From Centroscyllium fabricii (taxonomy: Eukaryota): 64,000 nt of DNA. The notes below the pieces were generated by a model. It ran no database searches. It saw nothing but the letters and a program-made list of their open reading frames with translations, and had not been told where the DNA came from. Position 1 is the stretch's first letter; each line of letters begins with the position of its first letter. Location of the stretch: positions 78,058,001-78,122,000 of the forward strand of contig JBNRSN020000006.1 of the NCBI GenBank assembly GCA_051313645.2, read 5' to 3'. A program made the translations under genes and the position numbers. Shown here piece by piece: positions 6,103 to 58,600 of this stretch.

Positions 6103-6171
6103 CAGCTCCCCCCCAGAATCTGTGAGGGAGAATAAAGTAAAAATAAAAAAGGGGAGCATAAAAGATGAGTC

Positions 6172-8382: not shown

Positions 8383-10074
8383 TCGGAGAAACTCGAAACG
8401 GCCGAAAGGGTAATGACGGCTGTCTTAGGGACGTCCGCCGGGTGCACTGGTACCTGGTGGTAGCCCCGTACCAGGTCAATCTTTGAAAAAATCGTGCAGC
8501 CGGCTAGCCTTGCTGAGAAATCTTGGATGTGGGGTACGGGGTACCTGTCTGGGGTGGTGGTGTTGTTGAGGCGGCGGTAGTCTCCGCAGGGGCGCCAGCC
8601 ACCGCCAGGCTTGGGGGCGATGTGGAGGGGGGAGGCCCAGGGGCTGCTGGAGCGGCGGATTATGCCGAGTTGTTCCATGATGTGGAACTCGGTACGCGCG
8701 ATCTCCAGCTTGGCCGGGTCCAGCCTGCGTGCGTGGGCATGGACTGGAGTGCCTGTGGTGGTGATGTGATGCTCCACCCCATGCTTGGCCATCCGGGCTG
8801 TGAAGTTGGGGTTGGTGAGGGCTGGGAACTCCGCGAGGAGCGTGCCGTACGTGTCGAAGTTCCGGGCTCGGCAGTGGGATGCTGCGTGGGCCTGGTGTGC
8901 CGGCCCTGTGGAGCATGGGATGGTCGACATGTAGTGGATGTCGACCAGGCGGCGCCGGGTCACGTCGACCAGTAGGCCGTGGGCGCAGAGAAAATCAGCC
9001 CCGAGGAGGGGTAGTTTGACTTGGGCTGTGATGAAGTCCCCCTGGTACGTGTGGCCTGCTAGCTTGATGGTGAGCTTGCGGGTGCCGTACGTAACTATCT
9101 CGGAGCCATTTGCGGCTTCGAGTGGTGGGCCTTGGGTGCCTTGCTTGGTTTCTGCGGGGGAGGCTGGCACAATGCTGTGCTGCGCGCCTGTGTCGCAGAG
9201 GAAGCGGAGGCCTGAGCCGCTGTCCGTGACGAAGAGCAGTGCTCCAGAGCGGCCTACGGACATGGTGGGGCTTGAGCTGGGTTGGGGTTTGAAGGTGCAG
9301 GGCTGGACGCAGCGCTGCGCTTTAGCTTCAAACCTGGTGTAGTAACACCAGCCGGGGCCTGTTGTGCACGGCTTTTTGCGGGTGCGCACTGGCCTGGGTT
9401 CAGACTTGGGACCGGACCTGGGGTGCGCGTAGTGGTGCTCCGGTGCCGTGGCAGCGGGCTCGCACGTGGCGGCTCGGGAGCGTTCGGCCCTCATAAGCTT
9501 GTCGGCCTCCTCAGCCAGTTGCCCTCCACTGTAGTGGTAGAGGATCGTCAGAGCCGGTCTGATGGAGGGAGGCAGTTTGAGGAGGAACAAAGTGCGCTTA
9601 ATGGTGGCCGGGTCGCAATTGAGCGCTTCCATTTGGGCCCAGAGGTCCGATGGGTCTGCGTCCCCGAGTTCGGGGAGGTTAATGAGCTGGCAGTCGCGCT
9701 CAAACTGGGAGGGGGTGAATTTCTTTAGCAGCGCGGCCTTAAGGAATTCGTACCTGCCAGCGGTTGGTTCGTGCTGTATCGTTGGCCACATTCGGTCGAC
9801 CGTGGTCTGTGATAGGGCCGCGAAGAGCAGGTTGTATCGATCGTCCCCCTGTACGCCATGGATGCGGTAGATGTTCTCCGTGCAGAGGAACCAGGCCGCT
9901 GGTCATAGTTCCCAGAACTCTGGCAGGGTTGGTATTTGGCCGGAGCTCTGGCCCAATCTCTGAAGTCGCGCTGTTTGGCTCCCTGATGGCATGTTGGTTG
10001 GGAGTGTACTGAGGCAGCTTGGCCCTCAGTCCTGCAGCAACTGCTTCATTATGTTCCCTTGGAAGTCGTTCCAA
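8292..10074 (-). pseudogene. gag-pol: Gypsy gag, aspartic protease and RT N-terminus (frameshifted)
   Basis: CYY-TRF..C...C knuckle, FLCDTGA protease, LLGADFL, SSPWASP, WRPCGDYRRLN, KIDLVRGYHQ. A 1-bp loss near 8408 breaks TAVITPFG. Confidence 0.9.
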
Positions 10075-10090
10075 GTATCGAGGTCACCAC

Positions 10091-10368
10091 TGTAGTGCAT
10101 GCAGGCCTGAAGAACCACGCTAGAGACAGTGAGATCGGATAACACTCATTTAATAGTTTATTCTGCAGGGGCCAGGTAGCGAAGAGACTGAGCCACCTGG
10201 AACGGGCATATTTAAAGGGCCCGCGGTTGGTGACGTCACCACCGGAAGTCCCGGTGACGTCATCACGCCGGAAGTCGTGGTGACGTCATCACGTCACCCG
10301 ATGGGCGGGGCCGTGCCCTGCAGTACTCCCGAGGCGGATTCGTTGGTCTTGGTGGGCGTGTCGCCACA
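10091..10368 (-). repeat. 5' LTR of the Gypsy element (278 bp) with CRE (TGACGTCA) and ETS (CCGGAAGT) motifs
   Basis: Direct repeat of 5851-6102 plus an extra ccggaagtcgtggtgacgtcatcacg unit. PBS is adjacent at about 10078-10089. Confidence 0.95.
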
Positions 10369-10624
10369 CTCTTAATAAGCCATTTAAGTAGCTGAATTGT
10401 ATCCCCCGTCGCTTGGTGTTGGTTCAGTTCTCTGCTGACTGACCCAACACCTGGGAGACTCGCATGGAGGCAGGTTGACGGCGGGTTTCCTACCCACTGT
10501 CAATCTTTGCTATTTTGACAGCGAACCCACCCCCTGAGCGCTATTAAATTCGTGGCCAAAGTATTTGTTTAATTTCAATGCCATTTCCTTATTCCCCATA
10601 ATAACTTCTGCTGTCTCAGCCTGT

Positions 10625-11005
10625 AACATAGAGACTAGGAGCAGGAGTAGGCCATTCGAGCCTGCTCCGCCATTCAATGAGATCATGGCTGATCATCCAA
10701 ACCCAGTACCCCGCCCCTACCCTCTCCCCATATCCCTCGATCCCTATTGAGCCTGCATCAACACATATCCCACCCTATCCCCGCAACCCAACATATTTAA
10801 TCCCCCGAACACTAAGGGTCAATTTATCCTGGCCAATCAACCTAACCCGCACATCTTTGGACTGTGGAAGGAAACCGGAGCACCCGGAGGAAACCCACGC
10901 AGACACGGGGAGAATGTGCAAACTCCACACAGATAGTACCCGAGGCTGGATTTGAACCCGGTGCTGTGAGGCAACAATGCTAACCACTGTGCCACCGTGC
11001 CGCCC
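10625..11005 (-). mobile_element. HE1-like tRNA/V-domain SINE, subfamily A
   Basis: Head ggcggcacggtggcacagtggttagc with B box ggttcaaatcc, V-domain gtggagtttgcacattctccccgtgtctgcgtgggtttcctccggg, and a CR1-derived tail. Confidence 0.9.
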
Positions 11006-11115
11006 ACATTTACTTTCGCTAATCTTTTCCTTTTTCCATGCCTATAGAAGCTTTTACAGTCCGTTTTTAGGTTTCTAGCCAGTTTTCTCATTCTATTTTC
11101 ACTTTCTTTATCAAT

Positions 11116-11408
11116 AATAATAATAATTCAACTTTATTGTCATTATACAATGTACAAGTACATGAACAACGAAATGTGATCTTTCAAGCTCCCAAGAGTC
11201 CAGCAAAGCCGCTGCGTCTGTGCGCGCCGCCATTCCATCTTCCCATCATTCCGACAATCTTCAGCCAACCGCCCCTCCCCGGGGCTCCTTTCGTGACCTT
11301 CGGCACCTGGTATTCTCTAGTGGTTACCCATCCAAGTACTAACCAGGCCTGACTCTGCTTAGCTTCCAAGCCTTGCCAGTGGCCCTGTCCCTAGTCCCAG
11401 GAACAGGG
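11116..11408 (-). mobile_element. 5S rRNA-derived composite SINE (SINE3-like) with Rex1/Babar-like 5' motif and 3' tail
   Basis: 7-bp TSD tatcaat (11109-11115, 11409-11415). 5S-like segment at about 11297-11370. Tail aatgacaataaagttgaa(tta)n. Confidence 0.85.
11297..11370 (-). pseudogene. Partial 5S rRNA-derived sequence (internal control region boxes A, IE, C), not a functional rRNA gene
   Basis: - strand GGAAGCTAAGCAGAGTCAGGCCTGGTTAGTACTTGGATGGGTAACCACTAGAGAATACCAGGTGC aligns to the 3' two-thirds of vertebrate 5S rRNA. The 5' third is absent. Confidence 0.85.
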
Positions 11409-12249
11409 TATCAATTTCTTGGTCCTTTGCTGAATTCTAAAAGCTTCCCAATTCTCAGGCTTACTACGCTTTTTGGCAACATTATAAGCCTCTTCTTTGG
11501 ATCCAATACTATCTTTAACTTCTCTTGTTAGCCACGGTTGGACCACTTTTCCTGTGGGGTTTTTGTGCCTTAAAGGAATGTATATTTGTTGTAAATTATG
11601 TATTCATTCTTTAATTTGCTTTCTCCAGATATGAAGGGCAGTGTTGTCTGGTCTCTAATATCACTAACTGTACACAACATTTTACAGTTGTATATACTAA
11701 ACTCAATTTCCTGATGATTTACCAGTGGTCATTTTGATAATATGACCATTGTTAATCTTACAGCGAATTGTGGTAGCTGGAAATAAACACTGACCAAAAT
11801 TTAAAGAAGCCTGTGGAACTGAGGCTCAATTGAAGCAAGAAGGTGTCTGAGCACAGAGACTTCATTCTTCCTTTGCCTTCATGAGTTGCCTTTTGCACTT
11901 GCACAAGGGAAATGACTTGTCAGCAGATTGCTCCCAGACGCTTCGCATAATCCAAGTCCTTCCAAACTCTGGGACCTGCTCCCACCTCCACATCAGCGAT
12001 CTAGAGTCAGCAATTTCCCTTGTTTCTTGCCATTCCAAGTACTCTCAGCATTCCTGGCCTCAGCGCCCGCTCTCCCTATTATCTCTCTCGCTGCCTTTTG
12101 CTCCACTTTCTTGCGATACCTCTGTCCTGTTCCCTGCAGTGTGGACCTTGCTTTGGATGCGAGCCTGCACCTGACCCCATTGCTTCATTCTGCCCCCAAT
12201 GGTGTGCATTTATTAGAACTGTTCATCGCGTAACATTTATCTGCTACTC

Positions 12250-16413: not shown

Positions 16414-16769
16414 CAGGTTGCGCACCGTTAATCCGGACACCGGCAATCTGCTAACTTCAGTCATTCGGAACGAATCCGGCCGACTGTTCTGCGCATGCGC
16501 GAAATGGCTGCTGCGCTTGCGAGCCTCTCCCCGACTGCCAGACTGGCCTGTGCATGCGCGAAATGGCCACCGCGCTTGGCTGCACATGCCTGGGCCTCCC
16601 CGAACGATTGATGCTTCGGCAAGCGCATGCGCAGACCTTTCAAAATGCTTTGCGGCGGCTATTTTGAATGGTCTGTGTATGCGCTCGCCGAAGCTTCAAT
16701 CATTCGGAGTTTTCACTTGTCCGGCACCGGCCTGGTCCCGCCTGTGCCGGATTAACAATGTCGGACCTG
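16414..16769. mobile_element. Tigger/pogo-type (Tc1-mariner) MITE
   Basis: TIRs caggttgcgcaccgttaatccgg / ccggattaacaatgtcggacctg. TA on the left; CR1 resumes after it. Confidence 0.8.
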
Positions 16770-17417
16770 GACCGATATTTAAGAAGGGGGATAGAACATG
16801 TCCAGGGAATTATAGACCAGTCAGCTTAATATCAGTGGTAGGAAAAATAATGGAATCCCTACTAAAGGAGAAAATAGAAGAACATCTAGAAACCAAAAAT
16901 AATATAATGAGTAGTTAGCATGGATTTCAAAAGGGAAAATCCTGCTTGACCAACCTTACTGAATTTTGTGAAGATGTAACAGAGAGAGTAGACAATGGTA
17001 ATGCAGTAGATGTAATTTATCTGGATTTTTCAAAAGGCCTTTGATGAGGTACCCCATAATAGACTGATGAACAAGGTCAGAGAATGCGGAGTCAGGGGAC
17101 AAGTAGCAGAATGGATTGCTGGCTGGCTTCAGCACAGAAACTAGAGAGTAGGAGTAAATGGTATCTATTCACAGTGGCAGAAGGTGGGTGGTGGTGTTCC
17201 ACAAGGATCAGTGCTGGGACCACTGCTGTTCACAATTTACATTAACGATTTAGACTTTGGAATCAAAAACACAATTTCTAAATTTGCGGATGACATCAAA
17301 TTGGGGGGTATAGTCAATCTTGAGGAGGACGGCAACAAATTACAGGAGAACATTAATAAACTTGCAGAATGGGCATATAATTGGCAAATGAGGTTCAACA
17401 CCGATAAATGTGAGGTA

Positions 17418-17887
17418 TAGGTTGTGCACCGAAAATCCGTGTCCCGAATAGCCGGCAGCTTCAGTCTGCTGGCACAAATTGCCCCAACTGCACTGCGCAT
17501 GCGCAAGATGGCCGCCGCCATCGTGGCTTCAGCGAATGATCTGCGCATGCGTCGCCGGACGGTTAGCGCATGCGCAGATAATTCAATAGGCCGCCGGTTA
17601 TTTTCTCGACAGCTGAGCCCCGTGACTGAGGCGGACAGTCACTAGGCAACAGCTGTCAGCCTGAGTCCGGCTCGGCGGCAGCAGCAACCTGAAAGGCGAT
17701 GGAGAGGGAAGGCGGCTCCCGGGCCCGGATTGCGCATGCGCGCGCCAGCCAATCCCAATGTTGTGCGCATGCGCGCGGCCATTTTGAATGGTGCGCATGC
17801 GCAGTGTCCAACCTCGTTCTCCCGGTTTTTTCTGTTTCCCGGCACGGGCCTGGTCCCGCCCGTGGCGGATTAATGGTGCACAACCTG
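17418..17887. mobile_element. Tigger/pogo-type MITE
   Basis: TIRs taggttgtgcaccgaaaatccg / cggattaatggtgcacaacctg with TA on both sides. Splits the CR1 motif KCEV|LHFG. Confidence 0.85.
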
Positions 17888-18681
17888 TATTACATTTTGG
17901 TAGGAAGAATAGGGAGGGCACTTATCACTTGGATGGTGCGAATCCAGGGATAGAGGAACCAAGGCATTTCGGAGTACAAATATACAAATCACTAAAATTT
18001 ACGACGCAGGTTAGCAAGGCTATAAAAAAGCAAACCAAGCACTAGGGTTTATTTCTAGAGGTATAGAATTGAAAAGTAGGGAAGCTATGCTAAACCTGTA
18101 ACGAACCTTGGTTAGACCACACTTCCAGTACTGCGTACAGTTCTGGTCACCACATAAAAAGGATATAGAGGCACTGGAGAGGGTGCAGAGAAAATTTACA
18201 CGGATGATACCGGAAATGCGAGGGTATACCCATCAGGAAATGATGAACAGGCTGGGTCTCTTTTTTTTCTCTTGGAAAAAAGAAGGCTGGGGGGTGATCT
18301 AATAGAAGTCTTAAGTTGTGGAGACAGAGAATGTTTCCACTTGTGGGGAAGAGCATAACTAGAGGCCATCAATATAAGATAGTTACCAAGAAATCCAATA
18401 GGGAATTCAGAAGAAACTTCTTTACCCAGAGAGTGATGAGAATGTGGAACTTGCTACCACAGCGAGTGGTTAAAGCAGATTGCGTAGATGCATTTAAGGG
18501 GAGGCTGGACAAGCATCTGAGGGACAAGGGAATAGAGGGTTATGCTGATAGATTTAGATGAGGAAAGACTGGAGGCGACTCGAGTGGAGCATTAACGCCA
18601 GCATGGACTGGTTGGGCCGAATGGCCTGTTTCTGTGCTGTATATTCTATGTAAAAGCTGATCAGTCACCCAGTCCGATGGG

Positions 18682-23988: not shown

Positions 23989-25215
23989 ACATAGGAACAT
24001 AGAAGATAGGAGCAGGAGTAGGTCTTTCGGCCCCTCGAGCCTGCCCTGCCATTCAATGAGATCATGGCTGATCATCCAAATTCAGGACCCTGTCCCTTCC
24101 TTCTCCCCATATCCCTTGATCCCTTTAGCCTTAAGAAATATATCTAACTCCTTCTTGAATATATTTACTGAATTGGCCTCAACTGCCTTCTGCGGTAGAG
24201 AATTCCACAGGTTCACCACTCTCTGGGTGAAGAAATTCCTCTTCATTTCTATCCTAAATGGCTTACCCCTTATCTTTAGACTGTGACTGCTGGTTCTGGA
24301 CTCCCCTGCCATCAGGACCATCCTTCCTGCATGTAATCTGTCTAGTCCTGTTAGAATTTTATAAGTTTCAGTGAGCGGCATGGTGGCATAGTGGTTAGCA
24401 CTGTTGTTTACAGCACTAGAGACCCGGGTTCAAATCCAACCTCGGATACTATCTGTGTGGAGTTTGCACATTCTCCCCGTGTCTGCGTGGGTTTCCTCCG
24501 GGTGCTCCGGTTTCCTCCCACAGTCCAAAGATGTGCGGGTTAGGTTGATTGGCCATGATAAATTGACCCTTAATGTTAGGGGGATTGAATATGTGGGGTT
24601 ACAGGGATAGGGTGGGATATGTGTCGGTGCAGGCTCGATAGGGATCGAGGGATATGGGGACAAGGCAGGGACAGGGTACTGGGTTTGGATGATCAGCCAT
24701 GATCTCATTGAATGGTGGAGCAGGCTCGAAGGGCCGAATGGCCTACTCCTGCTCCTATCTTCTATGTTTCTAGATCCCCTCTCATTCTTCTAAACTCCAG
24801 TGAGTATAAGCCCAATCTCTCCTCCTCATACATTATTCCTGCCATCCCAGGTATCAGTCTGGTGAATCTTCGCTGCACTCCTTCCATGGCAAGAACATCC
24901 TTCCTCGGATAAGGCGACCAAAATTGCACACAATACGGAAGGTGTGGTCTCACCAAGGCCCTGTACAACTGCAGCAAAACATCCTTGCTCCTGTATTCTA
25001 ATCCTTTCGCTATGAAGGCCAACATACCATTTGCCTTCTTAATGGCCTTCTGCACCTGCATGCTTACCTTCAGCGACTGGTTCACAGGGACCCCCAGGTC
25101 TTGTTGCACTCCCCCTTCTCCCAATCTATTGCCATTCAGATAATCTGCCTTCCTGTTTTTGCCACCAAAGTGGCTAACCTCACATCAATCCACATTATAC
25201 TGTATCTGCCATGCA
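23989..25215 (-). mobile_element. CR1 3' fragment interrupted by an HE1-like SINE A (24375-24770, +)
   Basis: RPHLPYCVQFWSP, VVNLWNSLP, CR1 tail; the SINE head and V-domain lie inside. Confidence 0.88.
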
Positions 25216-35521: not shown

Positions 35522-36560
35522 TACAACAACAACTTGTATTTATATAGTGCCTTTAACGTAGTAAAACATCTCCAGGCGCTTCACAGGAGTGTTATAAGAC
35601 TAAAAATTTGACACCGAGCCATATATAGGTTGAGCACCGTTAATCCGGTACCCGAAAAACCGGCAGCTTCAGTCGTCCACCAATTTTTTTTCCCAACTGC
35701 CCGGCGCGTGCGCAGACAATTCAAAATGGCCGCCGTCGGGGCTGGGCTTCCCTTTCACCTAATAGATACTCACTGTATCCCGGCTTAGTGACCGCCCCGA
35801 TGCCGATGGTGAATCCCAGGCCCAAAAGATGAGCTGTTGTGCCAGCCGCCGTTCACAGGCCGTGGTACAGCCAAAACTCGACGCCCGGCTCCCCATCGCT
35901 GCCGGAGGCTGCTGCGTGCTGACGTCACTGCGTTCCGAAGCTGGCGTGCGGTGGCGTCACGTGAGCCGGGCTTGAGCCGCGCATTGGGCGTCCGGCCCGC
36001 TGGAACCGTGCAGCCCGCTCGCTGATCCGCCATGGGCCGCAGAATCGAGTGCGTCTTGTGAGTTCCACCCGAACCGTGGGCCGAAAATCACCTTCCTGGT
36101 ACCAGCGGCACATGCGCAGCACATTCAAAATTTTGCGGTGGCTATTTTGAATGCTCTGCGCATGCGCCGCCGAAGCTTCAGTCATTCGACGTTTTCACAA
36201 ATTCGGCAGGGTGCTGGTCCCAACCCTGCCGGATTAACTGTGCTCAACCTGTAAGGAGAAATTAGGGCAGATGACCAAAAGCTTGGTCAAAGGGGTAGGT
36301 TTTAAGGAGCATCTTAAAGGAGGAGAGAGAGGCGGAGAGGTTTAGGGAGGGAATTCCAGAGCTTTGAGCCGAGCCAACAGAAGGCATGACCACCAGTAGT
36401 TGAGCAATTTATAATTAGTGATGCTCAAGAGGGTAGAATATGAGGAGCACAGATATCTCTGGGTGCGGTGGCGGGGGAGGTTGTGGTGCTGGAGGAGATT
36501 ACAGAGATAGCGAGGTCCTGGAGAGGTTTGAAAACAAGGATGAAAATTTTGAAATCGAGA
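35522..36560 (-). mobile_element. L2 3' end interrupted by a MITE
   Basis: acaacaacaacttgtatttatatag tail and DFKIFILVFK, matching 22778-23190. Confidence 0.82.
35626..36251. mobile_element. Tigger/pogo-type MITE
   Basis: TIRs taggttgagcaccgttaatccgg / ccggattaactgtgctcaacctg with TA TSD. Subterminal sequence shared with 16414-16769. Confidence 0.87.
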
Positions 36561-39500
36561 AAAGCATGGATCATGCGAATAAACGCGTGGCTACAGGATT
36601 GGTGCAGAAGGGAGGGCATGAGTTTCGTGGACAATTGAGAATCGTTCTGGGGAAGGTGGGATCTGTATGACCGGGACGGCTTGCACCTGAACCGAAGGGG
36701 CATCAACATTCTGGGTGGGAAACTCGCTTCGGCCATAAAGGGGGATTTAAACTAATTGGCCAGGGGGATGGGGAAATGGGCAGGGAAACAGGCAGGGAAA
36801 CAGAGGGGAGACCAGGGAACAACGAGGAAAAGGGGGGCGAACCAAGGACACAGGGAAGTGACAGGGGACTGAAATGCGCCTACTTCAATGCAAGAAGTAT
36901 AAGGAACAAGGCAGGAGAGCTAGGGGCATGGATGGCGACATGGGACTTCGATGTGGTGGCCATTACAGAGACATGGCTGGAGCAGGGACAGGACTGGATG
37001 CTTGGGGTTCAGGGATACAGAAGCTTCTGGAGGAGCAGGGAGGGAGGAAAGCGCCAGGGGGGAGTAGCACTGCTGGTCAAGGACAGCGTGACAGCTACAG
37101 AAAAACACTTTGAGGGGGACACACGAACGGAGGTAGTATGGGCGGAGCTTAGAAATAGGAAAGGGGCGGTAACGTTAGTGGGAGTCTTTTATAGACCACC
37201 AAATAGTAACAGGGAGGTGGAGGAGGAAATTGCGCGACAAATAAAGGAAAGATGTGGGGGACATAGGGTAGTTATCATGGGAGATTTCAATTTCCCTAAT
37301 ATAGACTGGAATCTAGGAAGGTCAAAGAGTGCAGATGGAGAGATTTTCTTACAATGCGTGCAGGAAGGTTTCCTGACACAATACGTGGAGGAACCAACAA
37401 GGTGGGGGGCAACGTTGGACCTGGTTCTGGGAAATGAACCAGGCCAAGTGGTAGAACTGGGGGTAAGGGAGCACTTTGGGGACAGTGACCACAACTCGGT
37501 GACGTTCACAATAGTAATGGAGAAGGATAGGAGCATGAGGCAGGGTAAGGTATACAGCTGGGGGAGGGGAAATTACGACAGGGTTAGGCACGATTTAGCT
37601 AACACCAATTGGGAACGGGAACTTGCTGGGAGAGGAACGGAAGAAAAATGGAGAGTGTTCAGGGAGCAAATTATGAAAGCCGTGGATAAGCATGTCCCGA
37701 GTAGGATGGGAAACAAGGGAAAGAGGAGAGAACTGTGGATCACGAAAGAGGTAGAACAATTAGTAAAGAAGAAGAAGGAGGCATATGATAGAATGAGAAA
37801 GCAGTGTACAGCAGGGGCGGGAAAGGAGTACAAAGAAGCAAGGAAAAAACTGAAGAATGGGCTAAGGAAGGCAAAGGGAGGGCATGAGAAGGCATTAGCG
37901 GGAAGGATAAAGGAGAACCCTAAGGCTTTCTATGCTTACGTAAGAAATAAAAGGATGACTAGGATAAGAGTAGGGCCGATCAAAGACGGCAAGGGAGAAA
38001 TGTGCACGGAGTCAGAGGAAATTGGGGAAGCACTAAATGAATATTTTGCGTCCGTGTTCACAAGGGAGAGGGAACTAAAAGTAGAGGAGGAGTTCAAGAT
38101 ACAAGGGGAAAGGATGGGGGAAGTAAATATTCAGAGGGGGGAGGTATTAGATATTTTGGAGAAACTGAAGGTAGACAAATCTCCTGGGCCGGACGGGATA
38201 TATCCAAGGATTCTCTGGGAAGCGAGGAACAAAATCGCAGAGCCACTGACCTCTATCTTTAGTTCCTCGCTATCCTCGGGGATAGTCCCTGAGGACTGGA
38301 GAGAGGCGAATGTGGTTCCCATATTTAAAAAGGGGAGCAGGGACGTGCCAGGGAACTACAGACCAGTCAGCCTTACCTCGGTGGTCGGAAAGGTGATGGA
38401 AAGGGTCCTGAGGGACAGGATCTACGACCATCTAGAAAGGGGCAAATTAATCAGGAGCAGTCAGCACGGATTCGTTAAGGGCAAATCGTGCCTGACCAAC
38501 CTGATAGACTTCTTTGAAGAGGTGACCAAGTGTGTGGATGAGGGAAAGGCGGTTGATGTCATATATATGGACTTCAGCAAGGCGTTCGACAAGGTCCCGC
38601 ACGGTCGACTCATGAAGAAAGTAAGGAGTTGCGGGGTAAACAACGAAGTGGTGGGATGGATTGAGAACTGGCTGGCTCAGAGGAAGCAGAGGGTAGGGGT
38701 AGAGGGCCAATACTCGGGTTGGAGACCGGTCACCAGTGGGGTACCACAGGGGTCGGTGTTGGGGCCACTACTGTTTGTAATCTTTATCAATGACTTGGAG
38801 GAGGGGACTGAGGGGTGGGTCAGCAAATTTGCGGATGACACAAAGATTGGGGGAGTAGTGGATGAGGAGGAAGGAAGTAGAAAGATTCAGAGGGATATAG
38901 ATAGGATGCAGAGCTGGGCTGAAGAATGGCAAATGGAGTTCAACACGGGGAAATGCGAGGTGATGCACTTCGGTAGGGCAAATAGGAAGAGGGAATATAG
39001 GGTCAACGGCAGGGTCCTGAGTGAAGCAGAGGAGCAAAGGGATCTGGGAGTATATGTACACAGATCATTGAAGGCTGCCACCCAGGTGGACAAGGCAGTA
39101 AAAAAGGCCTATGGTGTATTGGCCTTCATCAACAGGGGAATAGAGTTTAAGAACCGGGAGGTCATGCTACAGCTGTACAGGTCACTGGTGAGACCACACT
39201 TGGAGTACTGTGTGCAGTTCTGGGCACCGTACTACAGGAGAGATGTGGAGGCGCTGGAGAGGGTGCAGAGGAGATTCACCAGGATGCTGCCGGGAATGGG
39301 GGGAAAGTCGTACGAGGAGAGGTTGAGGGAGCTGGGACTCTTCTCCCTGGAACGGAGAAGGAAGAGGGGGGACTTAATAGAGATGTTTAAAATGATGAAG
39401 GGGATCGATAGAGTAAACGTGCAGAGACTGTTTCCCCGGGTGGGAAGAACGACAACAAGAGGGCACGAGCACAAGATTCAAGGAGGAAGATTCAGAAGGG

Positions 39501-39717
39501 ATGGCAGAGGCAAGTTCTTTACGCAGAGAGTGGTCGGGGAATGGAATAGGCTACCATCTGAAATAGTGGATGTGGACAGTCTGGGGGCTTTTAAAAGGAT
39601 GATAGATAGGTACATGGAGGGGAAGGAAGAGTAGGGGGGACAGGAAAAATCAGAGACGGACTAAGCGCGGCACTACATTGAGGGCCCAAGGGCCTGTACA
39701 GTGCTCTATGTTCTATG
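36561..39717 (+). mobile_element. Young 5'-truncated CR1 LINE: ORF1 (SGNH esterase) C-terminus, intact ORF2, short tail
   Basis: ORF1 remnant INAWLQDWCRREG..N*ESFWGRWDLYDRDGLHLN (about 36567-36755) followed by the 952-aa ORF and a ctatgttctatg tail. Confidence 0.95.
36776..39634 (+). CDS. CR1 ORF2 protein: AP endonuclease and reverse transcriptase, uninterrupted (952 aa)
   Basis: FNARSIRNK, ITETWL, YRPP, GDFN, LDLVL, SDHN; KSPGPDG, YRPVSLTS, QHGF, DFSKAFDKV, PQGSVLGP, FADD, DLGV, LEYCVQFW, WNRLP. Confidence 0.95.
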   Translation: MGRETGRETEGRPGNNEEKGGEPRTQGSDRGLKCAYFNARSIRNKAGELGAWMATWDFDVVAITETWLEQGQDWMLGVQGYRSFWRSREGGKRQGGVALLVKDSVTATEKHFEGDTRTEVVWAELRNRKGAVTLVGVFYRPPNSNREVEEEIARQIKERCGGHRVVIMGDFNFPNIDWNLGRSKSADGEIFLQCVQEGFLTQYVEEPTRWGATLDLVLGNEPGQVVELGVREHFGDSDHNSVTFTIVMEKDRSMRQGKVYSWGRGNYDRVRHDLANTNWERELAGRGTEEKWRVFREQIMKAVDKHVPSRMGNKGKRRELWITKEVEQLVKKKKEAYDRMRKQCTAGAGKEYKEARKKLKNGLRKAKGGHEKALAGRIKENPKAFYAYVRNKRMTRIRVGPIKDGKGEMCTESEEIGEALNEYFASVFTRERELKVEEEFKIQGERMGEVNIQRGEVLDILEKLKVDKSPGPDGIYPRILWEARNKIAEPLTSIFSSSLSSGIVPEDWREANVVPIFKKGSRDVPGNYRPVSLTSVVGKVMERVLRDRIYDHLERGKLIRSSQHGFVKGKSCLTNLIDFFEEVTKCVDEGKAVDVIYMDFSKAFDKVPHGRLMKKVRSCGVNNEVVGWIENWLAQRKQRVGVEGQYSGWRPVTSGVPQGSVLGPLLFVIFINDLEEGTEGWVSKFADDTKIGGVVDEEEGSRKIQRDIDRMQSWAEEWQMEFNTGKCEVMHFGRANRKREYRVNGRVLSEAEEQRDLGVYVHRSLKAATQVDKAVKKAYGVLAFINRGIEFKNREVMLQLYRSLVRPHLEYCVQFWAPYYRRDVEALERVQRRFTRMLPGMGGKSYEERLRELGLFSLERRRKRGDLIEMFKMMKGIDRVNVQRLFPRVGRTTTRGHEHKIQGGRFRRDGRGKFFTQRVVGEWNRLPSEIVDVDSLGAFKRMIDRYMEGKEE

Positions 39718-41256: not shown

Positions 41257-41530
41257 CAGGTTGAGCACTGGTAATCTGGCACCCGATGGCCGAAGGCGTC
41301 AGGCGTTTGGGCTTCTGTTTTTTTTAGGTTTTGTAAGTGTTCTTTCCCCAGGCTCCCTCCCGGGGAGTGTTCTGCAGCGCGCTCCGGGCCCAGGGGAGTG
41401 TTCTGCCGCGCGCTCCGGGCCCCGGGGAGTGTTCTACCGTGCGCTCCAGGCCCCGAGGATTGTTCTACCGCGTGCTCCGGGCCCCGAGGAGTGTTCTGCC
41501 GCGCGCTCCGGGCCCCGGGGAGTGTTTGAA
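41257..41530 (+). mobile_element. One-ended Tigger-type MITE containing a 31-bp minisatellite
   Basis: TA + caggttgagcactggtaatctgg; right TIR not found. Confidence 0.6.
41362..41527. repeat. Minisatellite, about 5.3 copies of 31 bp (ggggagtgttctgccgcgcgctccgggcccc)
   Basis: Directly visible tandem units with no spacers. Confidence 0.92.
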
Positions 41531-41865: not shown

Positions 41866-42534
41866 TGAAGGAAGAATGAGGAGGGGCAATATAAACTAAA
41901 TTATACAATTTTAATGGGGGTACACAAACAGTGAGACCTGTACACAAATCTTTGAAGGTGGCCGGACAAGTTGAACAGGCTGTCAAAAAAGTATCGGGAG
42001 CTTTGGCTTTATAAACAGAAGCATAGCGTACAAAAGCAAGGAAGTTATGCTAAACCTTTACAAAACACTGGTTAGGCCTCAGCTGGAGTATTGTTCAATT
42101 CTGGGCACCACACTTCGGATGGGTGTCAAGGCCTTGGAGAGGGTGCAGAAAAGATTGACCAGAAATTATGTGGTAAGACTGGAGAAGCTGGAATTGTTCT
42201 CCTTTGAGCTGAGAAGGTTAAGGGGAGATTTAATAGAGGCATTCAAAATCATGAGGGGTTTTGATAGAGTAACAAGTGTTTCCAGTGGCAAGAGAATCAG
42301 TAACCAGAGGACACAGATTTAAGGTGATTGGCAAAAGAACCAGAGGTGAGGTGATGAGAAATTTATGATCTGGAAAGCACTCCCTGAAAGGGCGGTGGAA
42401 ACAGATTCAATAGTAACTTTCAAAAGGGAATTGGATCAATACCTGAGAGAAAAGTTTGCAGGGCTATGGGGAAAAGAGCAGGGAATTGGGACTAATTGGA
42501 TAGATCTTTCAAAGAGCCGGAACAGGAGATGATG
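41866..42534 (+). mobile_element. Old CR1 3' fragment
   Basis: LNLYKTLVRPQLEYC, RRLRGDLIEAFKIM. Confidence 0.82.
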
Positions 42535-42589
42535 CAACACCTGCTCTTTCATTTCTCTTTCTACCATCCAGGGCCCCAAACACTCCTAA

Positions 42590-43461
42590 CAAACAAGATG
42601 GCGGCGCGCATAGACGCAGCGGCTTTGCATCTCCCGATTTTTTTAGTGTCCCTGGTTCCCGCACTGTTCCTGGAGAGGACGGCGGGGTCGGTGGAGTAGA
42701 GCACCGGTGCTCCTCAATCGGGGCACCGGTGCTGAACACGCCGTCGTGGTTGTCGGAGCGCCGGGGTGCTGAGAGCGGGCTCGTGGGGCCTTCGGGCTCG
42801 GAGAGCCGTGGGGCCGTCGGGCTCGGGGGGCCGTGGGGCCGTCGGGCTCGGGGGGCCGTGGGGCCGTCGGGCTCGGGGGGCCGTGGGGCCGTCGGGCTCG
42901 GGGGGCCGTCGGGCTCGGGGGGCCGTCGGGCTCGGGGGGCCGTCGGGCTCGGGGGGCCGTCGGGCTCGGGGGGCCGTGGGGCCGTCGGGCTCGGGGGGCC
43001 GTGGGGCCGTCGGGCTCGTGGGGCCGTCGGGCTCGGGGGGCCGTGGGGCCGTCGGGCTCGGGGGGCCGGGGGGCCGTCGGGGTCGGGGGGCCGTGGGGCC
43101 GTCGGGCTCGGGGGGCCGTGGGGCTCGGGGGGCCGTGGGGCTCGGGGGGCCGTCGGGCTCGTGGGGCCGTCGGGCTCGGGGGGCCGTCGGGCTCGGGGGG
43201 GGGGGGGGCCGTCGGGCTCGGGGGGCCGTGGGACTCGGGGGCCGTGGGGCTCGGAGAGCCGCGGGGCCGTCGGGAGCCGCGAGGCCGTCGTGGCCGGCAC
43301 CGGGCGCATCGTGGCTGTAGCGCCGGGTGGTCCTGGTGGGATGGAATGGATCACACTGGGACTAAAGGACATTTAATAATTTGGGAGATTGCATGTTTGC
43401 ATTTCGTTGTTTTGTGTATGTTCACTTTACAATGACAATAAATTGAATCTTATCTTATCTT
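42590..43461 (+). mobile_element. Non-coding retroposon with central G-rich VNTR, Rex1/Babar-like 5' motif and tail
   Basis: caagatggcggcgcgcatagacgcagcggctttgc at the 5' end and catttcgttgtt...aatgacaataaattgaa(tctta)n at the 3' end. Both are shared with 11116-11408. The 5' boundary is uncertain and could be about 42535. Confidence 0.75.
42777..43285 (+). repeat. G/C-rich compound VNTR (gggctcgggg / gggccgtc / gggccgtg units)
   Basis: About 500 bp of permuted 8-10-bp units, essentially lacking A on the + strand. Confidence 0.95.
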
Positions 43462-43624
43462 AGGTGAAATGGTTATTTACTTCTACTTCCAACTTAGCAT
43501 ATTGTATTCACTGCTCACTACGCGTTCCTCTATGTCAGGGGAACCAAACGCAGATTTGTTTGCTTCGCTGATGACAGTGGCGTATTTATATAGCGCCTTT
43601 AACATAGTAAAACGTCCCAAGGCG

Positions 43625-44130
43625 CAACACCTTTGTTCAGTCTGCAAACGTGACCCTGAGCAGCTTCTCGCCTGCCACTTGAAACCGACATCCCATGCCC
43701 ACCCTGTCCTTGGCCTCCTGCACTGTTGCAATGAAGTAAAACACAAGCTCGAGGAACAGGACCTCATCTTTCGATTAGGCATTTCACAGCCTTCCAGACT
43801 CTGCGTTGAGTTCAACAACTTTAGGTCATAACCACTGCTCCAATTTTCTCGGACAGCAGGTGTTGGCAATGGTTCTGCTGTAACCATTTATACCTCCTCT
43901 GGATCTATCTTTTGTATCCCCCCTCCCGCCCTGCCAACCTTTTCCTCTGCCTCTGCACTCGGTTAAATGCTGTTGCATCTCTAACTTCTTCCAGTTCTGG
44001 CGAAGGGTCATCGACCTGAAACGTTAACTCTTGTTTCTCTCTCCACGGCTGCTGCCTGAACCGCTGAGTATTTCCAGCATTTTCTGTTTTTATTTCCGGT
44101 TTCCAGCATCTGCTGTACTTTGCTTTTATA
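43625..44130 (+). mobile_element. Penelope-like element 3' end (GIY-YIG C-terminus and pLTR)
   Basis: KHKLEEQDLIFRLGISQPSRLCVEFNNFRS* followed by a pLTR with a hammerhead-like motif and a ccagcatc...tttgctttt tail. Confidence 0.8.
43993..44029 (+). ncRNA. Degenerate minimal hammerhead ribozyme motif
   Basis: agtt-CTGGCGA-a-gggtc(atc)gacct-GAAA-cgtt-aact. The core CTGANGA has an A>G change. Confidence 0.6.
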
Positions 44131-46453: not shown

Positions 46454-48079
46454 TATAGGATTCTCAAAATTCCCACGCCCCTCGTAGCTATTAATAATAA
46501 AACCTCACAGAGAAAAGGACTTCCAGCAAAAGGCCATGGTCTAAGGGGTATGGAATGTGCCATACCTGAAACTAGGAAGCCAGTCTTGCATCCCAGACAG
46601 ACAGCAAGGAGTTCAATACACTCCAAGGCCAACAGGCGCCGGAGATGGTTTGATCTCGCAAAGTTGAAAATGATTAAAACTGGTGTATAAATAAGCACCT
46701 ATGACTAAATTGGCCATGAAGGCAGAAACCAGTAACTCGTACTTTTGCATAACTAAACACTCAAAACCTCAGAACAATTCAAACCCCGATACTGGACAGT
46801 TAACGGCTCCCAGAACAAAGCAGCCAAAAACAGCATGGCCATTAAGGAAGGAGACCACCACCCTGAAACTCAATAAGGTGGATGGCCATAATCGATTTTA
46901 CGGGCCCGCCAAAATGTTGACAAAAGCCTGGCTTTGATTTGGTGTGAGATAAGAGACACAGATTTTGTATAACTGTAAGGCCCCAAAAGCAAGCAGGCAG
47001 GCAGATACTTGACAGGAGATTCAGAACACGAGAAGACAACGCAATAAGGAAGCAGCGAAGCATCTGGGCAGGAGGACAAGCAGTACCAACAACCAACAAG
47101 ACCAGAAAACAAAACCCGAAGTCCCTGTACGTAATTTAAAGGGCTGGGTAAAAGCTACTCTCTCTGAACAAAGCAAGAAAGAGTAATCAATCAGAAACAG
47201 GTATCACGCAGTTCCTGAGGGAGAGAGACCACATGACAGCGGCAGACCCTTCGGGACAAGAAGAAGCAAACTCCAAACTCTCAACTGCAGTGGCAGAACT
47301 TGGCTTGGTGAGCAGGAATCCCTGGGCTTCTCATAGCCAAATCTAGTTAGGTAGTAGGGGTGGGACCAGGTAAAAGGGGAGTAAATTTAACTGATTTTTC
47401 CCTCGTGTTGTATGTTTCCTATTCCCAGTTATTAGAAACATAGAATTATAGAAGATAGGAGCAGGAGTAGGCCATTTGGCCCTTCGAGCCTGCTCCGCCA
47501 TTCAATGAGATCATGGCTGATCATCCAAACCCAGCACCCCCCTCCTACCCTCTCCCCATATCCCCCCAATTCTAAGAGCTATCACATATCCCACCCTATC
47601 CCCGTAACCCCCACATATTTAATCCCCCTAACACTAAGGGTCAATTTATCATGGCCAATCAACCTAACCCGCACATCTTTGGACTGTGGGAGGAAACCGG
47701 AGCACCCGGAGGAAACCCACGCAGACACCGGGAGAATGTGCAAACTCCATACAGATAGGACCAGAGGCCGGATTTGAACCCGGGTCTCTAGCGCTGTGAG
47801 GCAACAGTGCTAACCACTATGCCACCGTGCCGCCCTATTGGATCTTGTTTATAAGTTTAGCCCTGTAAGTTAACTTGACATGATTTTCTCTCTCTTATAA
47901 AGTTTGATTGTGATGATTTTTAATAAAAAGCCGTTTTCTTGCACCAAACCCGTTGTCTACTCCAATTTTGTATCACAAACCTGCATCTAAGTCCAGTGTC
48001 TAGAACCTCGGGCGTGGGAGTGATTCGAACCGCTCCGGTAGTCAGTGGCAAAGCTGACCCAAAGAGGCCACCCACTACA
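46454..48079 (+). mobile_element. Long solo LTR (about 1.2 kb without the SINE), probably ERV- or Gypsy-derived
   Basis: 4-bp TSD ACCC (46450-46453, 48080-48083). Ends tatag...ctaca (TG decayed to TA). AATAAA near 47922. The Harbinger frame rejoins across it. Confidence 0.72.
47434..47835 (-). mobile_element. HE1-like SINE with subfamily A body and subfamily B tail
   Basis: A-type head and V-domain, but tail cttagaattgggggatatggggagagggtaggagggggg-tgctggg is as in B copies. Confidence 0.85.
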
Positions 48080-48429: not shown

Positions 48430-51400
48430 GTTTTTATGGGATGTGGGCAAGACCAGCATTTATTGTCCGTCCCTAATTGCCCTTGAGACGGTGGTGGTGA
48501 GCCGCCGCCTTGAACCGCTGCAGTCCGTGTGGTGAAGGTACTCCCACAGTGCTGTTAGGTAGGGAGTTCTGGGATTTTGACCCAGTGACGATGAAGGATC
48601 AGTGGTATACTTCTAAGTCAGGATGGTGTATAACTTGGAGGGAACTTGGAGGTGGTGGTGTTCCCATGCGCCTGCTGTCCTTGTCCTTCTAGCTGGAAGA
48701 GATCGCGAGTTTGGGAGGTGCTGCCGAAGAAGCCTTGGCGAGTTGCTGCAGTACATCTTGTAGATGGTACACACTGCAGTCGTGGTACGCTGGTGGTGGA
48801 GGAAGCGGATGTTTAAGGTGGTAGAGGGGGTGCCAAAGAGGGGGTGCCAATCAAGCAGGCTGCTTTGTCCTGGATGGTCTTGAGCTTCTTGAGTGTTATT
48901 GGAGCTGTACTCATCCAGGCAAGTGGAAAATATTCCATCACACTCCTTACTTGTGCCTTGTAGATGGTAGAAAGGCTTTGTGTGGCAGGAGGTGAGACAC
49001 TCGCAGCAGAATACCCAGCCTCTGACCTGCTCTTGTTGCCACAGTATTTATGTGGCTGGCCCAGTTAAGTTTCTGGTCAATAGTGACCCCCCAGGATGTT
49101 GATGGTGGAGGATTCGGTGATGGCAATGCCATTGAGCGGTGTTTAGACTCTTGCTTATTGGAGATTGTCATTGCCTGGCATCTCTGTGGCACAAATGTTA
49201 CCTGCCACTTACCAGCCCAAGCCTTTTTTTAAAATTCATTGATGGGATGTGGGTGTCGCTGGCTGGCGAGGCCTGCATTTAGTGCCCATCCCTAATTGCC
49301 CCTGAGAAGATGGTGGTGAGCCACCTTGAACCGCTGCAGTCCATATGGTGTAGGTACACCCACAATGTTGTTAGGAAGGGAGTTCCAGGATTTTGGCCCA
49401 GCGACAGTGAAGGAGCGGCGATACAGGTCCAAGTCAGGATGGTGTGTGGCTTGGAGGGGAACTTGTAGGTGGTGCTGTTCCCATGCGTCTGCTGCCCTTG
49501 TCCTTCTAAGTGGTAGAGGTCGCGGGTTTGGAAGGTGCTGTTGAAGGAGCTTTGGCGAGTTGCTGCAGTGCATCTTGTAGATGGTACACACTGCAGCCAC
49601 AGTGCACCGGTGGTGGAGGGAGTGAATGTTGAAGGTGGTGGATGGAGTGCCAATCAAGCGGTGTCGAGCTTCTTGAGTGTTGTTGGAGCTGCACTCATCC
49701 AGGCAAGTGGAGAGTATTCCATCACACTCCTGACTTAGTGTGGTTTTGATGAAATGAGAATGGAGATAAAGGGATAAAAAGCAGTGGAAAAAGTATCTTT
49801 GGAGGAGTAAAACCCTTCTTTTGGAGTTGAAGTGAATTGGGCAGAGTTCATGATAGCACTAATTCTGTTTGGCAGTGAGAGGTATGAGCTCGATGGGTTG
49901 GATAGATGCCCTGTATTCAGTCAATTCTTCCTTATTTTCTTACACATTGAGGAAAAAGAAATAAAATTAACCCAAATTTAGCACATTGCAGAGTACAAGA
50001 GCAAGGAAGTTATGCTACACATAGAAACATAGAAGATAGGAGCAGGAGTAGGCCATTCGGCCCTTTGAGCCTGTTCAATCAGAAGATGGTTGATCATCCA
50101 AACCCAGTACCCCACCCCTGCCCCCTCCCCATATCCCTCGATCCCTATCGAGCCTGCACCGACATATATCCCACCCTATCCCCATAACCCCACATATTTA
50201 ATCCCCCTAACACTAAGGGTCAATTTATCATGGCCAATCAACCTAACCCACACATCTTTGGACTGTGGGATGAAACCGGAGCACCCGGAGGAAACCCACA
50301 CAGACACGGGGAGAATGTGCAAACTCCACATAGATAGTACCCAAGGCTGGATTTGGACCCGGGTCTCCAGAGCTGTGAGGCAACAGTGCTTTCTTTTAAT
50401 TCATTGATGGGATGTGGGTGTCGCTGGCTGGCTAGGCCTGCATTTAGTGCCCATCACTAATTGCCCTTGAGAAGATGGTGGTGAGCCACCTTCTTGAACC
50501 GCTGCAGTCCATATGGTGTAGGTACACCCACAATGTTGTTAGGAAGGGAGTTCCAGGAATTTGGCCCAGCGACAGTGAAGGAGCGGCGATACAGGTCCAA
50601 GTCAGGATGGTGTGTGGCTTGGAGGGGAACTTGTAGGTGGTGCTGTTCCCATGCGTCTGCTGCCCTTGTCCTTCTAAGTGGTGGAGGTCGCGGGTTTGGA
50701 AGGTGCTGTTGAAGGAGCTTTGGCGAGTTGCTGCAGTGCATCTTGTAGATGGTACACACTGCAGCCACAGTGCGCCGGTGGTGGAGGGAGTTAATGTTGA
50801 AGGTGGTGGTTGGAGTGCCAATCAAGCGGCCTGCTTTATCCTGAATGGTGTCGAGCTTCTTAAATGTTGTTGGAGCTGCACTCATCCAGGCAAGTGGAGA
50901 GTATTCCATCACACTCCTGACTTGTGCCTTGCAGATGGTGGAAAGGCTTTCGGGAGTCAGGAGGTGAGACACTCACCACAGAATTCCCAGCCTCTGGCCT
51001 GCTCTTGTAGCCACAGTATTTATATGGCTGGTCCAGTTCAGTTTCCGATCAATGGTAACCCCCAGGATGTTGATAGTGGGGGATTCAGCGATGATAATGC
51101 CATTGAATGTCAAGGGGAGATGGTTAGAGTCTCGCTTGTTGGAGATGGTCATTGCCTGGCACTTGTGTGGTGCGAATGTTACTTGCCACTTGTCAGCCCA
51201 AGTCTGAATGTTGTCCAGGTCTTGCTACATATGGACACGAACTGCGTCAGTATCTGCCGAGTCTCAAATGGTGCTGAACAGTGTGCAATCATCAGCGAAC
51301 ATCCCCACTTCTGACCTTATGATGGAGGGAATGTCATTGATGAAACAGCTGAAGATGGTTGGGCCTAGGACACTGCCCTGAGGAACTCCTGCAGTGATGT

Positions 51401-55611: not shown

Positions 55612-58600
55612 TCGAAACATAGAAAATCGGTGCAGGAATAGACCATTCGGTCCTTCGAGCCTGCGTTCATGGCTGAACATGCTATCTCAGTACCCCATTC
55701 CTGCGGCAGAGAATTCCACAGATTCACCACTCTCTGGGTGAAGAAGTTCCTCCTCATCTCAGTCTTAAATGGCCTCCCCTTTATCCTTAGACTGTGACCC
55801 CTGGTTCGAGTCTTCCCTAACATTGGAAACATTCTGCCTGCATCTAACTTGTCTAAACCAGTCAGGATTTTAAACGTCTCTATAAGATCCCCCCTCATTC
55901 TTCTGAACTCCAGAGGATACAAGTTCAGTTGATCCAGTCTTTCTTGATATGTCAGTCCAGCCATCCCAGGAATCAATCTAGTGAACCTTCGCTGCACTCC
56001 CTCAATAGCAAGAATGTCCTTCCTCAAGTTAGGAGACCAAAACTGCACACAATACTCCAGGTGTGGCCTCACCAAGGCCCTGTACAACTATAGCATCACC
56101 TCCCTACTCCTGTACTCAAATCCCCTTGCTATGAAGGCCATCATGCCATTTGCTTTCTTGACCGCCTGCTGCACTTGCATTCCCACCTTCAGTGACTGAT
56201 GTACAATGACGCCCAGGTCTTGTTGCACCTCCCCTTTCCCTAACTGCCACCATTCAGATAATAGTCTGCCTCTCTATTTTTACCACTAAAGTGGATAACC
56301 TCACATTTATCTCCATTGTACTTCATCTGCCATACATTTGCCCATTCACCCAACCTGTCCAAGTCACTCTGTAGCCTCCTAGCATCCTCCTCATTGTTCA
56401 CACTGCCTCCCAATTTAGTGTCATCCGCAAATTTGGAGACACTACAATTAATCGCTTCGTCCAAATCATTAATATATAATGTAAACAGCTGGGGCCCCAG
56501 CACCGAACCCTGCGGTACCCCGCTAGTCACTGCCTGCCATTCTGAAAAGTACCCATTTACTCCTACTCTTTGTTTCCTGTGTGCCAACCAGTTCTCCATC
56601 CACTTCAACACATTACCCCCAATCCCATGTGCTTTAACTTTGCACACCAATCTCTTGTGTGGGACCTTGTCGAAAGCTTTCTGAAAGTCCAAATACACCA
56701 CATCTACTGGTTCCCCCCCGTCCACCCTATTGCAAACATCCTCAAAAAATTCCAGAAGATTTGTCAAGCATGATTTCCCTTTCACAAATCCATGCTGACT
56801 TGGACCTATCGGGGCGGCACAGTGGTTAGCACTGTTGCCTTACAGCACTGGAGACCCGGGTTCAAATCCAGCCTCAGGTACTATCTGTGTGGAGTTTGCA
56901 CATTCTCCCCGTGTCTGCGTGGGTTTCCTCCGGGTGCTCCGGTTTCCTCCCACAGTCCAAAGATGTGCGGGTTAGGTTGATTGGCCATGATAAATTGACC
57001 CTTAGTGTTAGGGGGTTTGAATATGTAGGGTTACGGGGATAGGGTGTGATATGTGTCGATGGAGGCTCGATAGGGATCGAGGGATATGGGGAGAGGGCAG
57101 GGGCGGGGTACTGGGTTTGGATGATCAGCCATGATCTCATTGAATGGCGGAGCAGGCTCGAAGGGCCGAATGGCCTACTCCTGCTCCTAGTTTCTATGTT
57201 TCTATCATGTCGCCACTTTCCAAATGGTCTGCTATGACATCCTTAATAATTGATTCCATCATTTTACCCACCACCGATGTCTAGCCTGTTTTCTCCCTCC
57301 CTCCTTTTTTAAAAAGTGGGGTTACGTTAGCCACCCTCCACTCCATCAGAACTGATCCAGAGTCTAAGGAATGTTGGAAAATGATCGTCAATGCATCCAC
57401 TATTTCCAAGGTCACCTCCTTAAGTACTCTGGGATGCAGACCATCAGGCCCTGGGGATTTATCAGCCTTCAGTCCCATCAATCTCCCCAACACCTTTTCC
57501 CGACTGATAAGGATTTCCCTCAGCTCTTCCCTCTTACCAGATCCTCTGACCCCTTTTATTTCCGGAAGGTTGTTTGTGTCCTCCTCAGTAAACACCGAAC
57601 CAAAGTACTTATTCAATTGATCTGCCATTTCTTTGTTCCCCATTATGACTTCCCCTGTTTCTGACTGCAGGGGACCTACGTTTGTTTTTACTAACCTCTT
57701 TTTACATATTTATGGAAGCTTTTGCAGTCCGTTTTAATGTTCTCTGCAAGCTTCTTTTCATATTTTATTTTCCCTGCCCTAATCAAACCCTTTGTCCTCC
57801 TCTGCTGAGTTTTAAAGTTCTCCCAGTCCCCGGGTTTGCTGCTACTTCTGGCCAATTTGTATGCCACTTCCTTGGTTTTAATACTATCCCTGATTTCCCT
57901 TGTTAGCCATGGTTGAGCCACCTTCCCTTTTTTATTTTTACACCAGACAGGGATGTACAATTGTTGTAGTTCATCCATGCGATCTCTAAATGTCTGCCAT
58001 TGCCCTTCCACTGATAACCCCTTAAATATCGCTTGCCAATCTAACCTCGCCAATTCACGCCTCATACCCTCAAAGTTGCCCTTATTTAAGTTTTGGACCA
58101 TGGTCTCTGAATTAACGGTTTCCTTCTCCATCCTAATGTAGAACTCCACCATACTATGGTCACTCTTCCCCAAGGGCCCTCGCACCACAAGATTGCTGAT
58201 TAGTCCTTCCTCATTACATAACACCCAGTCCAGGATGGCCTCCCCTCTAGTTGGTTCCTCAACATATTGGTTTAGGAAACCATCCCTTAAACACTCCAGG
58301 AAATCCTCCTCCACCGTATTGCTTCCAGTTTGAGTAGCCCAATCTATATGCATATTAAAGTCACCCATGATAACTGCTGTGCCTTTTTTGCACGCATCTC
58401 TGATTTCCTGTTTCATACCCTCCCCCACCTCACTACTACTGTTTGGAGGTCTGTACACAACATGCACTAACGTTTTCTGCCCTTTGGTGTTCTGCAGCTC
58501 CACCCATATTGATTCCACATCCTCCAAGCTAATGTCCTTCCTAGCTATTGCATTAATCTCCTCTTTAACCAGCAATGCTACCCTACCCCCTTTTCCTTTT

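Follow-up and report, generated by a model that had tools for sequence, protein, structure and literature searches.

A probable non-autonomous Rex1 derivative with a GC-rich minisatellite in a repeat-dense shark DNA window

Relation to described systems

Non-autonomous elements of LINE-end structure, known as SIDEs (short internally deleted elements) or bipartite non-autonomous LINEs, include RIME, RTESINE, the Vingi derivatives and the R2 SIDE (PMC5786205; for the bipartite architecture see also PMC7245038). Persaeus is a SIDE from CR1/Zenon with a central region unlike the LINE (PMC6740152). In the accessible part of the paper, Kojima 2018 gives RTE, Ingi, Vingi and R2 as the only sources of ORF-less bipartite LINEs and RTE and Vingi as the only donors of SINE middles, and leaves undecided whether sampling or transcription needs lie behind this short list of clades (PMC5786205). 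Rex1 occurs in sharks and rays, without ORF1 (PMC13343379), and its 3′ UTR is described as conserved, with a variable oligonucleotide repeat after it (PMC6274825); for some LINEs the recognition of a 3′ stem-loop is stringent (PMC5135761). The SINEs described from sharks are tRNA-headed with L2 tails (PMC5499810).

The 64-kb stretch of DNA analysed here (the window) holds one copy each of two elements, termed E1 and E2 (Table 1). E1 shows three of five SIDE features, namely a LINE 5′ end, the absence of RT, endonuclease and Pol III head, and insertion as one unit. It resembles the listed SIDEs in its LINE-end structure and its lack of an ORF and of a Pol III head, and Persaeus in its LINE-unlike centre, but differs from all of them in its apparent parent, Rex1 instead of RTE, Ingi, Vingi, R2 or CR1 (PMC5786205, PMC6740152), and in the 490-bp G4-prone minisatellite of its interior. 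With autonomous Rex1/Babar elements (SolSen_Rex1-1, LeuEri_Rex1-5/-12/-17 and HypSab_Rex1-5; PMC13343379) it has in common the 5′-terminal motif and a MAAR-type start followed by a T-rich stretch coding for hydrophobic residues, whereas it lacks APE/RT and measures 874 bp compared with about 3.1–3.5 kb. On these sequence comparisons E1 is probably a non-autonomous Rex1 derivative, either a SIDE or a bipartite non-autonomous LINE, which upholds the preliminary description of a retroposon that is non-autonomous and assembled from LINE ends.

That description had also drawn a parallel to SVA, which stands for the central GC-rich array and falls for the defining SVA modules. Like SVA, LAVA, PVA and FVA, E1 is a non-autonomous, non-LTR element whose central GC-rich array is bounded by distinct edge units and ordered inside (PMC4432496). 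In contrast to SVA, it contains no CT hexamer, Alu-like region, captured 3′ module, poly(A) or TSD, and the units of its array are 8–9 nt in 17/25-bp blocks compared with 30–50 bp in the SVA-type arrays (PMC4432496). Its ends apparently derive from its partner LINE, unlike those of SVA, and it is neither hominoid nor L1-linked. Membership of E1 in SVA was rejected on the hexamer/Alu-like region, the poly(A), in place of which there is a TCTTA tail, and the TSD. Tandem arrays inside retroelements are not rare, as some CR1-group elements carry repeated subunits near the 5′ UTR; a Daphne consensus in the PMC13343379 library contains a GC-rich array, and SINE-derived satellites are known (PMC10702118). 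With one copy seen, E1 gives the impression of a hitch-hiking element of an uncommon kind; it is not an SVA. A literature search covering mostly non-subscription papers found neither a Rex1-derived SIDE nor a SINE (5S-headed ones included) containing a 5′ fragment of Rex1, and no VNTR retroposon family outside primates; a Repbase or Dfam entry for E1 may exist.

Insertion into a Penelope-like frame

E1 entered a decayed Penelope-like frame as a single unit and without TSD. The host fragment beside it gave no match by word search, Pfam or Atlas and was recovered by phmmer, which yielded 12 relatives for the right flank and, in a second search, 29 proteins. Named relatives are two gene models, from Rhincodon and Stegostoma; in the domain check of four relatives GIY-YIG was found in three, with RT as well in one. 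The left flank had no match to P0004, P0009 and P0010, and matched only with closer proteins. As expected for an empty site, the peptides encoded by the two flanks lie exactly two codons apart in 15 of the 28 Penelope-like proteins, the remaining 13 lacking this spacing and mostly also a significant left-flank match. Since just three host bases are left for these two codons, E1 is one insertion with no TSD, and 0–3 target bases would have been lost when it inserted. The TSD scan found nothing adjoining either end, and the 6-bp candidate TTCTAC was dropped because it lies away from the element ends.

The clean insertion boundaries within a contiguous host frame, together with the ordered unit structure of the array, speak against an assembly artefact, that is, a collapsed or inflated GC repeat or a chance juxtaposition. 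A 13-G run near 43196–43208 could be a homopolymer error, yet an artefact is extremely improbable as an account of the element. The Penelope-like host also contains, at 43582–43625, a short end piece of another repeat with further occurrences at 22792, 35536 and 63539, which we take to be L2-like.

Table 1 Positions of E1, its flanking host sequence and E2 in the 64-kb window
Feature	Positions	Strand	Basis or detail
E1, whole 874-bp insertion, probable bipartite non-autonomous LINE derivative	42588–43461	+	flank-peptide spacing and TSD scan
Left flank of E1, host Penelope-like (RT + GIY-YIG) coding remnant	42533–42587	+	
Right flank of E1, host Penelope-like GIY-YIG remnant	43462–43831	+	interrupted near 43575–43625 by another repeat
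TISU/YY1-like element of E1, core AAGATGGC	42594–42605	+	exact match to the 12-nt TISU consensus
Rex1-like 5′-terminal motif of E1	42595–42628	+	30/31 shared with E2; library rows all Rex1
33-codon ORF of E1, probable remnant (MAARIDAAA + hydrophobic stretch)	42598–42699	+	translation; by-eye reading of three Rex1 consensus starts
5′ arm, imperfect long-range inverted repeat of E1	42626–42652	+	
Hairpin of E1, 14 bp, two copies of a palindromic word	42700–42733	+	
GC-rich minisatellite of E1	42776–43265	+	three 8–9-nt units in 17- and 25-bp higher-order blocks
3′ arm, imperfect long-range inverted repeat of E1	43367–43393	+	
LINE-type 3′ tail of E1	43381–43447	+	stem 43404–43410 / 43429–43435; AATAAA 43437–43442
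Terminal short repeat of E1, (TCTTA) × about 2.8	43448–43461	+	
E2, 293-bp 5S-headed element within a CR1 copy	11116–11408	-	7-bp TSD TATCAAT (11109–11115 / 11409–11415)
Partial 5S rRNA head of E2	11295–11383	-	37.1 bits vs gathering score 38, E 5.5e-6
Minimal bipartite unit of E2, putative	11126–11233	-	Rex1-like 5′ motif (11203–11233), tail almost directly after

Rex1-like ends and the 5S-headed element

The 31 bases at 42598–42628 agree at 30 positions with the reverse complement of 11203–11233 in E2, as noted preliminarily, and the runner-up 31-mer within the 64-kb window reaches only 20/31. For comparison we used the supplement of PMC13343379, a library of about 1000 CR1-group consensus sequences represented by the first 400 characters of each. 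All 16 rows matching two motif words belong to Rex1 and carry the motif at their 5′ end or close to it. For a shorter motif word, 19 of 22 rows are Rex1 among the matches listed, which cover 25 of its 29 places, and the other three rows are internal matches. Four further names tried gave no Rex1 row in this library. The sole element SolSen_Rex1-1 has 29 of the first 31 motif bases of E1 (counted by eye), two skate Rex1 rows share with E1 the TTGC after the motif, and the three catshark Rex1 rows start without this motif variant. Judged from these matches, the 31 bp common to E1 and E2 represent the 5′-terminal stretch of autonomous Rex1 LINEs, which gives a name at the 5′ end to the partner LINE through which E1 and E2 had been thought to be linked. 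The near-identity of the motif in E1 and E2 is attributable largely to its deep conservation across fish Rex1.

In three library rows read by eye, the Rex1 frame starts at the ATG of the motif, and in one of them it was followed through to the endonuclease region. The 33-codon ORF of E1, with no Pfam match and Atlas matches of 0.88 only, is probably the beginning of the Rex1 ORF in truncated form. As the motif folds more weakly than its shuffles in E1 and E2 (z +1.7 and +1.1), a conserved 5′ RNA structure is without support. Within the window, E1 holds the only exact match to the 12-nt TISU consensus, and the YY1-like start of the preliminary description is retained. TISU is an element for both YY1 transcription and short-leader translation, with the core in Table 1 located at +5 to +30, and the word in E1, a few bases from the 5′ end, fits this account in sequence and position (PMC2518114). 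By its sequence it is a candidate for an internal Pol II start combined with a short-leader start codon; it is intact in E1 and interrupted in E2. In the Rex1 rows of the PMC13343379 supplement, likewise, the frame seems by eye to begin a few bases from the 5′ end with a TISU-like ATG preceding a hydrophobic stretch, which the accessible part of that paper does not remark on. Elsewhere in the window, a small element with apparent terminal inverted repeats (17416–17890) contains many GCGCATGCGC words and two one-mismatch TISU/YY1-like words, and related pieces lie at 16623–16756, 35624–35714 and 36108–36238.

At their 3′ side both E1 and E2 end in CATTTCGTTGTT..AATGACAATAAA(G)TTGAA plus a short repeat, TCTTA in E1 and TTA in E2, so that the terminal words first reported stand, and the word CATTTCGTTG is confined to these two ends within the window. 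The tails are 77% identical over 70 columns (E 4e-8), and both are predicted to form the same outer stem, with z values of just −1.4 and −0.3. Besides E2, no repeat in the window matches the E1 tail, the weak matches at 17769–17840 (E 0.5) having been rejected. The tail word and the 5′ word were absent from the paper texts searched and a third word gave 12 unrelated matches; motif words yielded nothing usable for the Rex1 3′ end in paper supplements, and the accessible part of PMC3381678 holds nothing on Rex1 ends. Seven loci in bacterial and archaeal genomes, considered as contaminating copies of E1, carry neither the 5′ motif nor the tail repeat nor an RT and were dismissed as chance; a plasmid search gave no match.

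The tail of E1 is presumably a Rex1 tail, by parsimony and because Rex1 tails end in this way. E1 could also be a chimera, in which a Rex1 5′ end received the tail of another LINE clade by exchange and was mobilised by that LINE. This is quite unlikely: the tail matches no other repeat of the window, the motif and the tail occur together in two separate elements, and the form of Rex1 tails agrees with it. Tail exchange itself is documented for SINEs (PMC5786205). As a Rex1 derivative, E1 would be transcribed by Pol II from its inherited TISU/YY1-like element, and the one protein that Rex1 encodes, an APE-RT, would recognise the E1 tail in trans and copy it through target-primed reverse transcription. 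Peptide motifs detected no Rex1-type RT in the window.

E2 displays SINE3 features: a 5S head with internal control region, a LINE-type tail, the 7-bp TSD and an interrupted host. The 3′ part of 5S, including the internal control region, aligns well, and the 5′ part is mostly missing; about 45 non-5S bases with an 11-bp hairpin (11362–11408, minus strand) form the start of the element. E1, in line with the first account, has no such head, and no Rfam family matched it at E≤5. The two elements had been said to share both ends, which is wrong because in E2 the 5S head sits upstream of the motif, leaving the motif internal. From motif to tail the distance is 26 bp in E2 vs 771 bp in E1, and with the head lying upstream E2 is therefore read as a head joined to a minimal bipartite unit, an architecture that Kojima described for RTE (PMC5786205). 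By the same route, E2 would be a second derivative of related Rex1 ends that gained a 5S Pol III head on its upstream side while the Pol II start decayed.

In its order of 5S head, LINE 5′ fragment and LINE tail, E2 is like CoeSINE5, SINE-1_Pmo, HaSE3 and Ped-1, in which the LINE 5′ fragment is RTE whereas that of E2 matches Rex1. RSg-1, the source of the OS-SINE1 tail, is presumably of the Rex1 clade. OS-SINE1 is a Deu-SINE with a 5S head and an RSg-1 tail (PMC3747384); the 5S head is found in E2 as well, where it is partial and present in one copy.

The preliminary description had further proposed one chassis with swapped cargo. LINE ends are indeed found in both elements, but 5S lies upstream of the motif and not between the ends. 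A single modular family, in which a common chassis exchanges 5S or VNTR cargo in convergence on SVA, would account for the same motif, the similar tail and their same order in E1 and E2. It would also suit the first 26 bases of E2, which resemble two interior words of E1 (jointly, 3 of 5000 shuffles scored as high in a post hoc comparison; about 1–3% of shuffles for each word alone) and are the only, weak hint of closer kinship. Such a family is nonetheless rather unlikely, given a 5S head outside the motif–tail unit, a motif conserved across fish Rex1, tails no more alike than stated above though E1 and E2 both look young, and SVA ends that are not derived from the partner LINE (PMC4432496). 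As SolSen_Rex1-1 reaches 29/31 and the tails are about 23% different, the 30/31 match does not prove one family, and a common modular family for E1 and E2 is unproven from their sequences.

The interior of E1 and the origin of its array

The hairpin already noticed in the interior consists of two 14-nt arms (42700–42713 / 42720–42733) that are 93% Watson–Crick complementary and, as RNA, fully paired; its fold has a z of −6.5 with 0 of 200 shuffles as good, for a segment picked after inspection. The CpG-rich G-tract array, previously put at about 500 bp, comprises 490 bp with 87% GC, 77 CpG and 13 non-overlapping G4 motifs on the plus (sense) strand, compared with none on the minus strand. CpG observed/expected ratios are 0.96 for the array and 1.03 for the whole of E1 vs 0.49 for the window, in agreement with the youth ascribed to the element. 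Tiling of 42776–43300 gave 47 of 62 units perfect, and a 42-bp period was detected beside the 8–9-nt units. The core (42810–43220) contains 66 CG, 11 TG and 0 CA, and the edges (42777–42821 and 43231–43274) mirror each other, matching in 40 of 45 columns. These values describe a single sequence, for which the label VNTR used at first is unproven.

The array lies between the arms of an imperfect long-range inverted repeat, which match each other's reverse complement in 21 of 27 columns (13 of 1000 shuffles as good), with most predicted pair probabilities at 0.5–1.0. With moderate support, this pairing would enclose the E1 interior in RNA. E1 codes for no RT or endonuclease, peptide motifs revealed no remnant of Rex1 coding sequence in its interior, and its minus-strand frame had no relative among the 8000 protein candidates scored.

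In the Rex1 derivative that we favour, a GC-rich seed of 25–45 bp in the interior would have been amplified by slippage into the minisatellite. The diverged edges (5 of 45 columns) around a near-perfect core, in an element with full CpG retention, suggest that the duplication of the seed predates the insertion, and we lean slightly towards an array that was already present in the source element as a family trait. The leaning is kept this slight because arrays are also rebuilt at their insertion sites: a minisatellite that has inserted can lengthen rapidly at the DNA level, the level at which the SVA and LAVA arrays remodel (PMC4432496). Such remodelling would equally serve a one-off origin, in which the middle of a single Rex1 copy, or of a Rex1 SIDE copy without the repeat, was lost and the minisatellite grew locally after insertion, with no family trait involved. 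The single array-bearing copy in 64 kb agrees with this, as do the absence of a protein relative of the minus-strand frame and the presence of another GC-rich minisatellite in an unrelated small repeat. Against it stand the diverged mirror edges around the near-perfect core of this CpG-retaining element, an interior free of recognisable Rex1 coding sequence and the long-range stem around that interior. We regard a one-off origin as a real possibility that nevertheless falls short of even chances. The other minisatellite (41359–41526; 31 bp × 5.4) is also CpG-rich, and the repeat that contains it resembles at its start elements near 17416 and 36250.

Beyond this locus, we tentatively suggest, at less than even chances, that elasmobranchs carry a recently active family that is mobilised by Rex1 and transcribed by Pol II, with a G4 minisatellite held in an RNA stem between Rex1 ends. 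If so, a VNTR-bearing retroposon would have originated independently outside primates. A 5S SINE would likewise have arisen from the same Rex1 ends, whereby Rex1 would join the clades yielding bipartite derivatives and SINE bodies, and the Rex1 5′ terminus would combine promoter and start codon in the manner of TISU. The Rex1 case, whose TISU/YY1-like 5′ end is preserved in the headless element and disrupted in its 5S-headed counterpart, is of direct relevance to the question left by Kojima. Were the array a family trait, it would provide a non-primate system for studying whether GC-rich arrays aid mobilisation, an effect shown for LAVA, and shark genomes would have in it a source of mobile CpG/G4 islands; were it a single local expansion, E1 would be an ordinary curiosity.

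The window is altogether repeat-dense. On the minus strand, a Gypsy-type LTR retrotransposon (5851–10369) has terminal direct repeats that are 89% identical and a CpG observed/expected ratio of 0.86, its gag, protease, RT, RNase H and integrase domains being spread across two overlapping frames. A near-intact CR1-type frame on the plus strand (36671–39634) runs stop-free for 987 codons with endonuclease and RT domains, and another CR1 copy is interrupted at 2620–2889 by a palindromic, MITE-like element of 270 bp that is 83% self-complementary. A high-copy SINE-like repeat of about 390 bp, with copies up to 94% identical (10625–11007, 24375–24772, 47440–47835, 50020–50390, 56813–57204 and others), is presumably the shark HE1 SINE.
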